In this document: positions 9,813 through 19,178 of the stretch, in pieces
Layout: every line of letters starts with the position of its first letter
Numbering within the stretch: the stretch's first letter is position 1
Sequence record: MZ501089
Source: Escherichia phage KarlGJung
Reading direction: 5' to 3' (one strand)
DNA length: 64,000 nucleotides
Translations under genes and position numbers: made by a program
Notes under the pieces: model-generated
The model's database searches: none
Seen by the model: only the letters and a program-made list of their open reading frames with translations
Told to the model about the DNA's origin: nothing

Positions 9813-11400
<1,588 letters not shown>

Positions 11401-11408
11401 AATAAAAT

Positions 11409-11422
11409 GGGCCTTGCGGCCC
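11409..11422 (-). other. GNRA-tetraloop hairpin between the Shine-Dalgarno and start codon of denA
   Basis: Minus-sense UAAGGAG-U-GGGCC-GCAA-GGCCC-AUUUUAUU-AUG. Confidence 0.5.
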
Positions 11423-11427
11423 ACTCC

Positions 11428-12606
11428 TTAAAAGTATTTTTTAAAACTCATCATAACTTTATCATCAACATCATTATCAATCTGTGCAACAAGATAAGAT
11501 GACAGTTCTACTTCTTGTGGCGCTGATTGAACATTATCAGAATTAAGATATTCACGAATCCAAGGATATGGATGTTTAACCGGAGCATCGGTAATTGGGC
11601 ATGGAAGACCGCACTGTTTCATACGAGATACAGTTAAGTAATCAATAAAGCTCCACATGCTATTTGTATTTAATCCAGGAACATCGCCATCTTTAAATAA
11701 ATGAACTGCCCAATCTTTTTCTTGACGGTTAACTTCCATGAAAATATCAACTGCTTCTTGTTCACACTCTTGAGCAATTTTAACCCATTCATCACCATCC
11801 GTGCCAAGTTGAAGTTGACGAATAATATATTGTGTACCTTTAAGATGAAGCTGCTCATCACGTGCAATGAACTTCATAATCTTGGCATTACCTTCCATGA
11901 TTTCCATGTTCTTATGGAAGTTAAAGGTACATGCGAAAGATACATAAAAACGAATAGCTTCTAATGCATTAATAACGTGCAAACAGAGGTAAAGAGATTT
12001 CATTAGCTCACGCTTCCAATATGTCTCATGCTCAATAGCATCTTCAATAACGTCTTCGTCTGCATTAATTTCTTTTTGGTATTCGATATCAGCTTTAGCG
12101 TTTTCCCAATAACGAGTTTTAATCAGAACATCATCATAATAACGTCCAATGGATTCAGCACGTTTCATAATAGCTTCATCTAATACAATTTCATCAAATA
12201 CCTTCGATGGATCAGTATAAAGATTTCGCATGATATGTGTATATGAACGGCTGTGAATAGTTTCACTAAAAGTCCATGTAGCAACCCATGTATCAAGGCT
12301 TGGGTCTGAAATTAATGACATAAGTACAGCAGACGGTGCACGACCCTGAATGCTATCCAAAAGTGATTGATACTTCAGGTTGTTAGTAAAAATATTTTGC
12401 TGATACTGAGGAAGCTTATTAAACTGTGCAGCATCCATCATTAAGTTTACTTCTTCAGGACGCCAAAAAAATGATAAAGATTTCTCAATAAGTTCTTCAA
12501 ATACTCTATGTCGTTGAATATCATATCGAGCTAAACCCAATCCAGAACCAAAAAACATCGGCTCAGTCAAAATATTAACAGGGGATGTATTAAAAACTGT
12601 ACTCAT
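11428..12606 (-). CDS. nrdB: ribonucleotide reductase beta subunit (class Ia)
   Basis: 392-aa continuous ORF, ferritin-like RNR small subunit; T4-like N-terminus MSTVFNT...; no intron interruption. Confidence 0.92.
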   Translation of the reverse strand: MSTVFNTSPVNILTEPMFFGSGLGLARYDIQRHRVFEELIEKSLSFFWRPEEVNLMMDAAQFNKLPQYQQNIFTNNLKYQSLLDSIQGRAPSAVLMSLISDPSLDTWVATWTFSETIHSRSYTHIMRNLYTDPSKVFDEIVLDEAIMKRAESIGRYYDDVLIKTRYWENAKADIEYQKEINADEDVIEDAIEHETYWKRELMKSLYLCLHVINALEAIRFYVSFACTFNFHKNMEIMEGNAKIMKFIARDEQLHLKGTQYIIRQLQLGTDGDEWVKIAQECEQEAVDIFMEVNRQEKDWAVHLFKDGDVPGLNTNSMWSFIDYLTVSRMKQCGLPCPITDAPVKHPYPWIREYLNSDNVQSAPQEVELSSYLVAQIDNDVDDKVMMSFKKYF

Positions 12607-13244
12607 TTAGAATCCTTAAATTTACATTTATCATAATGCCATCTTAAAGCATTGCCTTTATTAACTTTCTTGCCACAATGTGGACAAGGCGGATACTCTG
12701 TACCTTGCTTAGTTCTCAAAGAAATCAAATCACGGGTTTCTTTAGTATGAGGAACATCTCTTGTCGGAGAGATTGTACCATACATCGGATTAAGCACGCC
12801 GACTTTAGCAGCAGCTATATTCTTTTTAGCTTCTTCGGTTTTAGGTTTTCTCATGCGAGCTAAATGCTCTTTGGTAAATTTCCTTCCTTTAAGGGCTCTA
12901 CTTATCTTTTCTCTGGTTTCCATAGAAACTTCACGTCCTGTAGCAGCTTCAGATAAACGTCGTCTACCTAATTCGTACAGTTGAGAAGAAATTTTATATG
13001 AGCGATTTTTACCAGTCAAGCACATTAAACCAAAAGCTTTCTTTAATCCTGGGGTGTCATATATTTTACATAAAAGCCAATGAGCTATAAAATGCTCTCT
13101 ACCTGTTAATTCAACTAAATTTTCTTTATCATCAGAACCTCCCATACATCTAGGGATTATATGATGAGTCTCTTTATATCCTAATAAAGGTTCCCGAGCC
13201 TGAGCTCGGGAAATTAGGTCGTTATAGATTTTTTGATAATTCAT
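12603..13244 (-). CDS. mobE: free-standing HNH homing endonuclease (mobE-like)
   Basis: HNH motif HHIIPRCMGGSDDKENLVELTGREHFIAH; repeated NUMOD-like DNA-binding modules (TREKISRALKGRK, TKEHLARMRKPKT, TEEAKKNIAAAKVG); C-terminal Cys/His cluster; lies between nrdA and nrdB like T4 mobE. Confidence 0.7.
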   Translation of the reverse strand: MNYQKIYNDLISRAQAREPLLGYKETHHIIPRCMGGSDDKENLVELTGREHFIAHWLLCKIYDTPGLKKAFGLMCLTGKNRSYKISSQLYELGRRRLSEAATGREVSMETREKISRALKGRKFTKEHLARMRKPKTEEAKKNIAAAKVGVLNPMYGTISPTRDVPHTKETRDLISLRTKQGTEYPPCPHCGKKVNKGNALRWHYDKCKFKDSK

Positions 13245-15508: not shown

Positions 15509-15747
15509 AAGTCCTCAACTTGAAAATCGTCTTTAAACAGTCGGTTAACTATATGAGCTATTATATCACCATGACACGGCTTTGGTTTACATGTGCATCC
15601 TAGCCTCATTCCACGTAAAGGCTCTAAATGTGCTTTAGTTATTTCTCCGGATTTAATTCGACGTATAAAATCTTTTTTGAATAATTCAATGGCAGCCTCC
15701 CGGCTGCCAGCATCTTTACCGACGTAATTTCCCCAAAAATGTACCAC
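15499..15747 (-). CDS. hypothetical protein (82 aa, GTG start)
   Basis: ORF track only; start codon is GTG with no clear Shine-Dalgarno. Confidence 0.35.
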   Translation of the reverse strand: MVHFWGNYVGKDAGSREAAIELFKKDFIRRIKSGEITKAHLEPLRGMRLGCTCKPKPCHGDIIAHIVNRLFKDDFQVEDLCN

Positions 15748-15779
15748 GGTGAATATTCACATCAAAGTCGGATTTGTAT

Positions 15780-16043
15780 TTATTCACTACCCGACATAGA
15801 CGGCCCGCGCGGTGATAATTCGGCATATTGTTTTTCCGTTAAAACAGTAATATCATAGTAACAATCAGAAGAAGTTTTAACTGTAGAAATTTTATTATCA
15901 AAATACTCACGAGTCATTTTATGAGTATAATATTTTTTGCCATAAATGATAATAGGCTGATTTGGTCCTGGAACTTCTAACTCACTTGGGTTAGGAAGTG
16001 TAAAAAGAACTACACCAGAAGTATCTTTAAATCGTAAAATCAT
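15780..16043 (-). CDS. hypothetical protein (87 aa)
   Basis: ORF track; ATG start with GAGGA Shine-Dalgarno. Confidence 0.5.
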
Positions 16044-16066
16044 AAATCCTCACAATTAAATTAAAA

Positions 16067-16378
16067 TTACACCGCCATTTTTCCTTTCAAGACGCCGTGG
16101 GACTGATAATCTTTGAGAACGAAATCTTTAGGCCTGAGTTTAAGAATGTATTCCAATTGTTCTTTAGTAGAAAGATAGCGGAATTTATAAGGCAATCCGC
16201 CTATTACCAGTTCACAAAGCTCTTTAGGTTCACGACGCAAAATTTCTTTACATTGTTCTACGTGATTCATATAGATATGAGTATTACCACCGGAAAATAT
16301 CAAATCTCCCGGAATAAGATTACACATCTTAGCTACAATATGAACTAACGTAGCATATGATGCAATATTAAATGGAAG
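16067..16378 (-). CDS. td: thymidylate synthase, exon 2 (spliced to exon 1 at 17395..17943)
   Basis: Exon 2 begins LPFNIASYATLVH (ThyA core). The ORF-track Met at 16379-16381 is the last three intron nucleotides (..AUG). Exon 1 + exon 2 = 286 aa. Confidence 0.92.
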   Translation of the reverse strand, partial: LPFNIASYATLVHIVAKMCNLIPGDLIFSGGNTHIYMNHVEQCKEILRREPKELCELVIGGLPYKFRYLSTKEQLEYILKLRPKDFVLKDYQSHGVLKGKMAV

Positions 16379-17394
16379 CATTATGTTCAGATAAGGTCGT
16401 TAATCTTACCCCGGAATTATATCCAGCTGCATGTCACCATGCAGATCAGACTATATCTCCAACTTGTTAAAGCAAGTTGTCTATCGTTTCGAGTCACTTG
16501 ACCCTACTCCCCAAAGGGATAGTCGTTAGGCATTTATGTAGAACCAATTCCATTTATCAGATTTTACACGATAAGTAACTAATCCAGACGAAATTTTAAA
16601 ATGTCTAGCTGCATCTGCTGCACAATCAAAAATAACCCCATCACATGAAATCTTTTTAATATTACTAGGCTTTTTACCTTTCATCTTTTCTGATATTTTA
16701 GATTTAGTTATGTCTGAATGCTTATGATTAAAGAATGAATTATTTTCACCTGAACGATTTCTGCATTTACTACAAGTATAAGCAGAAGTTTGTATGCGAA
16801 CACCGCACTTACAAAACTTATGGGTTTCTGGATTCCAACGCCCGTTTTTACTTCCGGGTTTACTGTAAAGAGCTTTCCGACCATCAGGTCCAAGTTTAAG
16901 CATCTTAGCTTTAACAGTTTCAGAACGTTTCTTAATAATTTCTTCTTTTAATGGATGCGTAGAACATGTATCACCAAACGTTGCATCAGCAATATTGTAT
17001 CCATTAATTTTAGAATTAAGCTCTTTAATCCAAAAATTTTCTCGTTCAATAATCAAATCTTTCTCATATGGAATTTCTTCCAAAATAGAACATTCAAACA
17101 CATTACCATGTTTGTTAAAAGACCTCTGAAGCTTTATAGAAGAATGGCATCCTTTTTCTAAATCTTTAAAATGCCTCTTCCATCTCTTTTCAAAATCTTT
17201 AGCACTTCCTACATATACTTTATTGTTTAAAGTATTTTTAATCTGATAAATTCCGCTTTTCATAAATACCTCTTTAAATATAGAAGTATTTATTAAAGGG
17301 CAGTCCTACAATTTAGCACGGGATTGTCTACTAGAGAGGTTCCCCGTTTAGATAGATTACAAGTATAAGTCACCTTATACTCAGGCCTCAATTA
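16379..17394 (-). mobile_element. group I self-splicing intron in td, carrying the I-TevI gene (1016 nt)
   Basis: Exon 1 ends ...FLG (last nt U), then in-frame TAA and the sequence UAAUUGAGGCCUGAGUAUAAGGUGACUUAUACUUGUAAUCUAUCUAAACGGGG...; intron ends ...AUAAUG (terminal G) before CUUCCAUUUAAU. Length and ends match the T4 td intron as I recall it. Confidence 0.9.
16526..17263 (-). CDS. I-TevI: GIY-YIG homing endonuclease I-TevI (intron-encoded)
   Basis: 245 aa; N-terminal GIY-YIG domain (MKSGIYQIKNTLNNKVYVGSAKDFEKRWKRH); zinc finger CKCGVRIQTSAYTCSKC; C-terminal DNA-binding domain; lies inside the td intron. Confidence 0.95.
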   Translation of the reverse strand: MKSGIYQIKNTLNNKVYVGSAKDFEKRWKRHFKDLEKGCHSSIKLQRSFNKHGNVFECSILEEIPYEKDLIIERENFWIKELNSKINGYNIADATFGDTCSTHPLKEEIIKKRSETVKAKMLKLGPDGRKALYSKPGSKNGRWNPETHKFCKCGVRIQTSAYTCSKCRNRSGENNSFFNHKHSDITKSKISEKMKGKKPSNIKKISCDGVIFDCAADAARHFKISSGLVTYRVKSDKWNWFYINA

Positions 17395-17943
17395 ACCCAA
17401 GAAAACATCTACTGATCGTTGATACCACTGAAGGTCAAGGTATCCATTACGCACATTAAACTGATAGAACATATGACAAGGCGGTAATGCCATATATTTA
17501 AGTTCAGCTGGATTCCATGCTGAAACAATTTGACGCCTATCATTTGGCAGTTTTTTAATACGATCAATAGTTTCAACTAATTGATCCACACCGCCGAAAT
17601 CACGCCATTGTTTACCGTATATAGGACCAAGTTCACCACTATGATATCCTAGGTCTTTAGCCTGGTTTTCATAGTTATCGTCCCAAATAGTTTTACCTTG
17701 AATAAGACTACCATGTGTGCGAAGACGTAAATCATTAACATTGGTAGAACCGGAAATAAACCATAGAAGCTCAGCAATGCATGCATTCCACGCAAGCTTC
17801 TTAGTTGTTACCGCAGGAAAACCTTTAGTTAAATCCCAACGTAATTTAGTACCGAACAAAGCAATTGTTCCTGTGCCTGTTCGGTCATCGGTTTCATAGC
17901 CATTTTCAAAAATGTCTTTAATTAAATCTTGGTATTGTTTCAT
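17395..17943 (-). CDS. td: thymidylate synthase, exon 1
   Basis: 183 codons, MKQYQDLIKDIFENGYETDDRTGTGT... through catalytic ...LPPCHMFYQF... to ...VDVFLG, followed by intron-borne TAA. Confidence 0.92.
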
Positions 17944-17988
17944 TTAGTACCTTATATAAATTATAATACATTTTATGAAGCTAAATAA

Positions 17989-18336
17989 TCAATACGGTTT
18001 AGCATCAAATTTTCTCTCAATTTCAGGCGTGAAATATAATTCTTTACCGCGTTTGGAAAAGCGACCAATAATATGATAATTATTCTCATCAAACGTGATA
18101 TTACCAATATCCATAGCTTTCAACCAAATATCGATATTTCTATCCAGCTTTATGTCAAAATTCCAATACGGAGAACTATTACCGAAAATACTGCAAGCGG
18201 ATTCAGTGAAACAACTGCTATAAATCTTGTCTTTAGGAACTACTAATTGATAGACACCTTTAATAAACTGAGGACCCTGCCACTTTGGCTGTTTCGTGTC
18301 TTTTTCTAATAGAATAGGGTAATAATTAAAATTCAT
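17989..18336 (-). CDS. hypothetical protein (115 aa)
   Basis: ORF track; ATG start; between frd and td. Confidence 0.45.
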   Translation of the reverse strand: MNFNYYPILLEKDTKQPKWQGPQFIKGVYQLVVPKDKIYSSCFTESACSIFGNSSPYWNFDIKLDRNIDIWLKAMDIGNITFDENNYHIIGRFSKRGKELYFTPEIERKFDAKPY

Positions 18337-18355
18337 ATTTCCGCCACGCGTTATT

Positions 18356-19178
<823 letters not shown>

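Follow-up and report, generated by a model that had tools for sequence, protein, structure and literature searches.

A near-identical copy of the T4 td group I intron, with an intact I-TevI gene, in the thymidylate synthase gene of Escherichia phage KarlGJung

The thymidylate synthase gene (td) of the T4-like phage KarlGJung (Tequatrovirus) is interrupted by an insert of 1016 nt that is almost certainly a T4-type td group I intron carrying I-TevI. The window, by which we mean the whole stretch of DNA that was analysed, comprises 64,000 nt of sequence record MZ501089. The td intron together with I-TevI is the archetypal phage group I intron/homing endonuclease combination and is already known in detail; in the literature the intron is assigned to subgroup IA2. 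A first-pass annotation made from the nucleotide sequence had proposed that td is split into pieces of 183 and 103 codons by a 1016-nt insert, with splice junctions at 17395|17394 and 16379|16378 on the minus strand. All of these coordinates and counts turn out to be exact, as do the predicted terminal bases (U at the end of exon 1, G at the end of the intron). The gene is organized as follows.

17943..17395, minus strand: td exon 1, 549 nt (183 codons), with the 3' end ...CTTGGGT (U)
17394..16379, minus strand: group I intron, 1016 nt, starting with TAATTGAGG (UAA) and ending with ...CATAATG, the terminal omega-G being at 16379
17263..16526 including the stop codon, minus strand: I-TevI ORF, 245 amino acids, with a GIY-YIG domain, a zinc finger and a DNA-binding domain
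16378..16067, minus strand: td exon 2, 312 nt (103 codons plus stop), starting with CTTCCATTT

The start ATG of td lies at position 17943, as obtained both from reading the minus strand and from the ORF listing, and the PPCH motif with the catalytic cysteine of ThyA is located in exon 1. The insertion point is fixed by the intronless allele of EC.W13-3 (L007), which reads ...GGT|CTTCCATTTAAT..., the insert being placed exactly between GGT and CTT. The position of the junction is unique and cannot slide. In the unspliced message, an in-frame UAA at 17394..17392 ends translation after residue 183, and the three bases at the end of the intron supply an AUG from which exon 2 can also be read (ORF 16067..16381).

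Splicing exons 1 and 2 in silico yields a ThyA of 286 amino acids with an uninterrupted reading frame. Residues 1-286 align with the T4 thymidylate synthase structure (PDB entry 1TIS) with zero gaps and an E-value of 2e-189, and the protein covers the complete Pfam model Thymidylat_synt (PF00303; positions 1-266 of 266, 314.3 bits). A gapless ThyA of this length is what the first-pass annotation had expected after splicing, a frameshift at the junction being the outcome that would have spoken against it; the frame is not shifted. The region DVFLG|LPFNIASY around the junction is unbroken in intronless Escherichia coli ThyA and in phage ThyA. Compared with the uninterrupted thymidylate synthase of EC.W13-3, the spliced protein shows 86% identity through the junction, and gaps occur solely in the divergent C-terminal part. 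The earlier description of td as an essential nucleotide-metabolism gene stands as far as nucleotide metabolism is concerned; 'essential' is too strong, as td is important in T4 but not strictly essential.

The intron differs from the T4 reference genome (NC_000866) at three of its 1016 positions. It has the same length (1016 nt) as the intron in the original T4 td record (M12742), from which it differs by two substitutions in 1016 nt. The first, at position 17132, is synonymous and falls in the codon for Lys44 of I-TevI. The second (A for C) is found at position 16446 in the single-stranded segment J7/9 between P7 and P9, a site that is either A or C in the td introns of relatives. Neither substitution touches a helix. 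As is required of a group I intron, the last base is a guanosine (...CAUAAUG, position 16379). Self-splicing of the T4 td intron is well established (PMC2988022), and the near-identity to this experimentally studied element suggests that the KarlGJung intron would likewise splice by the group I pathway.

The standard td helices P1 to P10, consisting of 80 pairs in 15 helices, were mapped onto the sequence. All 80 modelled pairs are canonical in the KarlGJung intron, and they are distributed over two segments that flank the ORF.

17401..17303, minus strand: 5' ribozyme segment, canonical pairs, corresponding to RF00028 model positions 1-117
17401-17395 with 17386-17380, minus strand: P1, exon sequence CUUGGGU paired with the internal guide sequence GCCUGAG
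17379-17374 with 17369-17364, minus strand: P2, closed by a GUGA loop
17356-17351 (5' strand) with 16485-16480 (3' strand), minus strand: P3
17347-17342 with 17323-17318, minus strand: P4
17337-17335 with 17329-17327, minus strand: P5
17317-17316 (5' strand) with 16531-16530 (3' strand), minus strand: P6
17310-17303 (5' strand) with 16544-16537 (3' strand), minus strand: P6a
16544..16379, minus strand: 3' ribozyme segment, canonical pairs, corresponding to RF00028 model positions 128-253
16524-16519 with 16454-16449, minus strand: P7, forming a pseudoknot with P3
16518-16516 with 16511-16509, minus strand: P7.1
16504-16500 with 16495-16491, minus strand: P7.2
16479-16473 with 16466-16460, minus strand: P8
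16444-16438 with 16433-16427, minus strand: P9, closed by a GUGA loop
16426-16422 with 16415-16411, minus strand: P9.1
16410-16405 with 16395-16390, minus strand: P9.2
17389-17387 (intron GAG) with 16378-16376 (exon 2 CUU), minus strand: P10, 3 bp possible

The intron RNA can therefore form a complete group I core running from P1 to P10 and including the P3/P7 pseudoknot. A U-1·G9 wobble in P1 marks the 5' splice site, and both L2 and L9 are GUGA tetraloops.

This fold was compared across an alignment of eight td introns from which the ORF had been trimmed. Standard pairs are formed in 99.1% of the cells, compared with 30-43% after sliding the partners by one to three columns. P1 pairs in 100% of cells across the eight introns, also where either the exon or the guide sequence has changed on one side alone. 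Compensatory changes are present in five pairs (two in P8, two in P9.2 and one in P10), a number that was reached in none of 500 shuffles. Helices P3, P4, P5, P6 and P7 are invariant across the eight introns, so that covariation argues neither for nor against them; it is the Rfam model that supports these helices. RNAalifold, to which no structure was supplied, recovers P2 to P6a, P7.1, P7.2, P8, P9, P9.1 and P9.2. When the ORF-trimmed intron is folded as a single sequence by minimum free energy, 55 of the 71 non-pseudoknot pairs are recovered but P1 and P9 come out misfolded; this fold therefore served as a cross-check only.

Recognition of the intron by covariance models depends on the ORF. 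An Rfam scan of the whole window at the gathering score gave no match at all. In a permissive local search the intron reaches 42.5 bits with RF00028 (E = 3.3e-9), which is below the gathering cutoff of 50 bits; only the 3' half of this alignment is sensible, its 5' half having been pulled into ORF sequence. When taken alone, the 5' end (17404-17296) matches model positions 1-117 with 16.9 bits and the 3' end (16540-16427) matches positions 128-253 with 30.4 bits. The intron is missed in situ because a loop of 757 nt in P6a, which holds the ORF, splits the core. Natural td introns that are devoid of the ORF exceed the cutoff, with scores of 73.8 bits for CE1, 64.1 for BYEP01, 63.8 for EI, 70.3 for HP3 and 66.9 for Shinka. 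The F1 intron, which is 446 nt long and has 187 nt of the loop left, falls short of the gathering score, and the intronless td allele used as a control gives no RF00028 match. The first 93 and the last 207 nt of the 320-nt Shinka intron are 100% identical to the KarlGJung intron, the KarlGJung segment 17301..16586 being the part that Shinka lacks. The 66.9 bits of Shinka are thus in effect the score of the KarlGJung ribozyme without its ORF. Membership of RF00028 is in this way obtained once the ORF loop is absent, through the natural ORF-less introns, and not in situ.

According to the first-pass annotation, the lack of a group I covariance-model hit would count against the intron. At the gathering score there is indeed no match, while the local, half-intron and ORF-less-relative scores all favour a group I intron. 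As an ORF-bearing intron can be invisible at the default Rfam threshold, the absence of a match is not a safe refutation. The proposal that the insert is a group I intron is upheld by the RF00028 scores of its natural ORF-less equivalents, by the canonical helices P1 to P10 and by the near-identity to the T4 td intron.

The ORF of 245 codons was correctly taken to encode a complete GIY-YIG endonuclease: its product is 100% identical to T4 I-TevI and hence an intact copy of this enzyme. Pfam identifies the domains GIY-YIG (residues 3-90), I-TevI_ZnF (149-179) and I-TevI_DNA-bd (192-242), and matches in the PDB are found for the catalytic domain (entries 1MK0 and 1LN0) and for the DNA-binding domain (entry 1I3J). 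Coding sequence and ribozyme overlap, the 3' strands of P6a and P6 being the last codons of I-TevI and the stop codon UAA being located in J6/7, an arrangement that is likewise found in T4 (PMC2988022). The start of the ORF is overlapped by a region that probably controls its expression.

17297..17259, minus strand: putative I-TevI regulatory region, identical in sequence to T4
17294-17287, minus strand: late-promoter-like box AATAAATA, where T4 has the operator

Within this region, a hairpin (17297-17282 with 17273-17259) covers the Shine-Dalgarno sequence GAGG and the AUG of I-TevI, which its stem pairs with the region of the AATAAATA box. A segment of 66 nt reaching from upstream of the ORF into it folds with a minimum free energy of -16.6 kcal/mol (z = -3.06). 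In T4 this hairpin prevents I-TevI from being translated off the long early transcripts, a late promoter located within the hairpin frees the ribosome-binding site, and I-TevI represses itself through an operator that overlaps the late promoter (PMC2988022). By analogy with T4, the same late-promoter, hairpin and operator functions may be expected in KarlGJung. The exact T4 late-promoter consensus TATAAATA does not occur in the intron and is found five times in the window, compared with 9.4 expected; the box upstream of I-TevI reads AATAAATA in T4 as well, rather than the consensus. A sigma-70 promoter scan of positions 15700-18500 returned 13 promoter-like sites, compared with 12.3 expected, and this promoter class is the wrong one for T4 late genes. 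A plus-strand 'terminator' picked up in a scan of the same segment was rejected, being the P8 helix read backwards.

A td stretch of 2.2 kb matches 762 phage records, in 163 of which the match spans 80% or more of the stretch, and with this recurrence the occurrence of the td intron is not a chance pattern. The best match is phage AV121 with 98.9% identity. The full-length intron arrangement is thus present in roughly 163 records of the phage collection, and the spliced junction is matched in one place by 403 of 577 phage records, which are intronless or contain a short intron. A scan of viral contigs for GACTCGAAACGATAGACA, intended to collect many td introns, returned a single locus (L008), which was set aside.

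The identity of intron and exons to their counterparts differs markedly. All three intron segments are 99.4-100% identical to those of T4, RB3 and AV121. Exon 1 of KarlGJung is 86.0% identical to that of T4, 86.7% to that of RB3 and 96.5% to that of AV121; among the relatives compared it is close to AV121 only, the identity to the others being 86-87%. For exon 2 the values are 88.8% (T4), 98.1% (RB3) and 100% (HP3). In Klebsiella phage EI the exons are 72-78% identical to those of KarlGJung and the ribozyme core is 96-98% identical. Taken together, RB3, HP3, F1 and EI have a ribozyme core of 96-100% identity inside exons of 72-87% identity. Such a step in identity between intron and exons is the expected trace of horizontal transfer of the intron, and is consistent with homing between phages. 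The patchy distribution of td-type introns among the T-even phages has long been known and is ascribed to homing (PMC2988022, refs 11-13). In the roughly 150 nt to either side of the intron, similarity to T4 is raised; the intronless allele of EC.W13-3 is conserved there too, so that coding constraint and co-conversion are not separable in these flanks. It is conceivable, although we regard it as doubtful, that the KarlGJung copy entered a diverged td lineage by homing in recent times and that the U at position +3 in P10 and the A in J7/9 might alter splicing efficiency or the site preference of I-TevI. If so, KarlGJung would be a natural variant that is useful for studying the mutual adaptation of intron and exons.

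The low in-situ Rfam score, which stays under the gathering cutoff, could also be taken as a sign of a decayed, splicing-defective intron, in which case td would effectively be a pseudogene and the host ThyA would supply dTMP. The element does decay in relatives, where ORF-deleted introns of 262-446 nt are encountered. Nevertheless, decay of the KarlGJung copy is very improbable: only two substitutions, none of them in a helix, separate it from the self-splicing T4 intron, all 80 modelled pairs are canonical, the exons keep an intact full-length ThyA frame and the intact ORF encodes a protein identical to active I-TevI. We find it scarcely credible that the insert is an intervening element of another kind, be it a group II intron, an intein or a free-standing endonuclease cassette that splits td into separately translated halves. 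Many annotations do list two 'thymidylate synthase' coding sequences and a 'homing endonuclease', and the AUG at the end of the intron would allow exon 2 to be translated from ORF 16067..16381. The T4 and RB3 records, however, annotate a joined td coding sequence with I-TevI inside, and the sequences flanking the endonuclease ORF form a complete group I core which passes RF00028 without the ORF. The insert cannot be an intein, since it opens with a stop codon (UAA, 17394-17392) at which the ORF of exon 1 ends. A group II intron is excluded as well: among the group II domain models (for example RF02004, D1-D4) a weak match was obtained (12.5 bits, E = 7.7), but with a cutoff of 34.5 bits this is at chance level.

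The combination of a T4-identical intron with a diverged td gene might in principle be an assembly or contamination chimera caused by laboratory T4 reads rather than a natural mosaic, as mixed reads could yield a step such as that between the intron (99.7-100% identical to T4) and exon 1 (86%). The same mosaic is nevertheless seen in many independent genomes, with AV121 being 98.9% identical over the whole 2.2 kb, and RB3, HP3, F1 and Klebsiella phage EI combine a ribozyme core of 96-100% identity with exons of 72-87% identity. The junctions are exact, P1 forms properly between the end of exon 1 and the guide sequence, and homing is known to leave these introns unevenly distributed among the T-even phages (PMC2988022, refs 11-13). 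We therefore judge a chimera to be extremely improbable.

For a T4-type td intron carrying I-TevI, which is the reading that we prefer, the near-identity to T4 suggests the following course of events. A free guanosine bound in P7 would attack the RNA chain after U-1, and the 3'-OH of exon 1 that is freed in this step would then attack after the terminal G, by which the exons are joined. I-TevI, encoded in the P6a loop, would probably be made late in infection from an intron-internal promoter, since in the longer early transcripts the hairpin is expected to fold over the ribosome-binding site. In a mixed infection, I-TevI would recognize the region around the insertion site of an intronless td allele and cleave this allele at CAACG, 23/25 nt upstream, and repair of the cut gene from an intron-bearing copy would install the intron. 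The intron-bearing allele itself should be immune to I-TevI because the intron splits the recognition site.

17421..17417, minus strand: CAACG, I-TevI cleavage motif (CNNNG), at -27..-23 from the insertion site in exon 1

The intronless td site of KarlGJung was reconstructed as CCTTCAGTGGTATCAACGATCAGTAGATGTTTTCTTGGGT|CTTCCATTTAATATTGCATC. Of the 52 positions from -27 to +25, four (-22, +3, +6 and +18) deviate from the T4 homing site, and CAACG is kept. The location of this motif is in agreement with the 23/25-nt distance rule for cleavage by I-TevI (PMC2988022). Given the identity of the protein and the near-identity of the element to those of T4, cleavage and homing are likely to operate in KarlGJung in the same manner.

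The td gene is best annotated as a single joined coding sequence (17943..17395 plus 16378..16067), the intron being entered as a feature that contains I-TevI. Many deposited relatives list td as two 'thymidylate synthase' fragments, which the joined coding sequence corrects. More generally, ORF-bearing group I introns can fail the Rfam gathering score entirely, and this holds even for the best-studied phage intron. The td intron mosaic together with its ORF-less derivatives illustrates the known life cycle of homing elements, in which invasion is followed by loss of the endonuclease, and introduces no new principle.

The KarlGJung element resembles the T4 td intron in its host gene, in its insertion site (GGU|CU.), in the position of the ORF in the P6a loop, in its ribozyme helices and in the I-TevI protein. 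It differs from T4 in its surroundings: the exons around the intron are 11-14% diverged, exon 2 has U instead of A as its third base, which extends P10 to 3 bp compared with 2 bp in T4, and an extra ORF of 115 amino acids lies between frd and td, whereas these two genes overlap in T4. The phages AV121, RB3, LZ2 and U5 and Salmonella phage Melville carry the same element at the same site, with differences in the exon backgrounds. The introns of AV121 and RB3 are 99.9-100% identical to that of KarlGJung, while the Melville intron is diverged (ribozyme 85-97% identical, ORF region 75%) and contains compensatory changes that support the same fold. The ORF-less td introns of CE1 (262 nt), BYEP01 (263 nt), EI (315 nt), HP3 (320 nt), Shinka (320 nt) and F1 (446 nt) share the ribozyme core and the insertion site with KarlGJung. 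With I-TevI wholly or largely deleted, they are presumably no longer able to home on their own, in contrast to the KarlGJung intron, which retains the full ORF of 245 amino acids.

Further group I introns of T4 interrupt the nucleotide-metabolism genes nrdB (with I-TevIII) and nrdD (sunY; with I-TevII). They, too, carry an endonuclease ORF that loops out from the ribozyme core, and their control by a late promoter and hairpin is of the same style (PMC2988022). Their host genes and insertion sites differ from those of the td intron, and I-TevIII is an HNH enzyme. In the KarlGJung window the nrdB ORF is uninterrupted and without an Rfam match at E <= 0.01, so that no second intron is present in this gene; nrdD is absent from the ORFs in the annotated part of the window (to about 31 kb). 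A second GIY-YIG ORF, at 10990..11424, was considered as a free-standing homing endonuclease and then dropped, its position making denA (endonuclease II) the more likely identity. Outside the phages, the thyA gene of Bacillus mojavensis contains a group I intron encoding I-BmoI, a GIY-YIG endonuclease related to I-TevI; here the host is a bacterium, the intron sequence is different and the endonuclease is only distantly similar to I-TevI.

The two exons of td differ in their closest relatives. By sequence comparison, exon 2 (16067..16378, minus strand) is 100% identical to that of phage HP3 and 98% identical to that of phage RB3, whereas exon 1 (17395..17943, minus strand) shares only 86–87% identity with both. 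These contrasting relationships suggest that recombination broke the sequence at the td intron or close to it. The final three intron bases (16379..16381, minus strand) read AUG in frame with exon 2 and thereby generate a spurious 104-aa ORF (16067..16381, minus strand), and many deposited genomes, in place of one joined td, list this ORF as a 'thymidylate synthase' CDS of its own.

Natural derivatives of the td intron are found in six relatives, in which the ribozyme is kept and I-TevI is mostly or wholly lost. These short introns represent the step in the life cycle of a homing element at which the endonuclease is lost.

Deletion derivatives of the td intron (phage, td locus, intron length)
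CE1, L011, 262 nt
BYEP01, L004, 263 nt
EI, L009, 315 nt
HP3, L005, 320 nt
Shinka, L014, 320 nt
F1, L006, 446 nt

The intron is 1017 nt long in the T4 reference genome (NC_000866.4, L001), compared with 1016 nt in both the original T4 td record (M12742.1, L013) and the window. The extra T of NC_000866.4 lies just past helix P6a, in GGACT[T]GCCC, and corresponds to window position 17303. The two T4 records disagree here because of a sequencing difference or else a polymorphism between strains.

Four further genes in the nrd and frd–td intervals bear on the comparison with T4 and with AV121, the closest relative.

Genes in the nrd and frd–td intervals
10990..11424, minus strand, 144-aa GIY-YIG ORF downstream of nrdB, matching phrog_1111 'endonuclease'
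11428..12606, minus strand, nrdB, a single uninterrupted 392-aa ORF with Pfam Ribonuc_red_sm
12603..13244, minus strand, free-standing 213-aa endonuclease gene (HNH and NUMOD3) between nrdA and nrdB
17989..18336, minus strand, 115-aa ORF between frd and td, matching phrog_1928

The GIY-YIG ORF is probably denA and not a mobile endonuclease, a reading based on its position: AV121 carries an annotated 'endonuclease' at the matching place, and in the T4 gene order this place is that of denA (endonuclease II). Its listed GTG start is probably eight codons too far upstream.

The 115-aa ORF between frd and td gave no match in a Pfam search. AV121 and RB3 carry it as well; T4 lacks it, and there frd and td overlap directly.

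The HNH protein encoded between nrdA and nrdB is 60% identical to T4 MobE across residues 1–127, but at 213 aa it is longer than MobE, which has 141 aa. A 'Hef' endonuclease has been reported in place of mobE in some phages (PMC1275590). AV121 lacks the HNH and NUMOD3 gene and instead has an intron in nrdB. In the window nrdB is unbroken and a search around the gene returned no group I intron match; KarlGJung therefore has the td intron and lacks the nrdB intron. In this it differs from T4, in which the nrdB intron is present, and from AV121, where that intron is approximately 1.1 kb long and encodes a 269-aa endonuclease.
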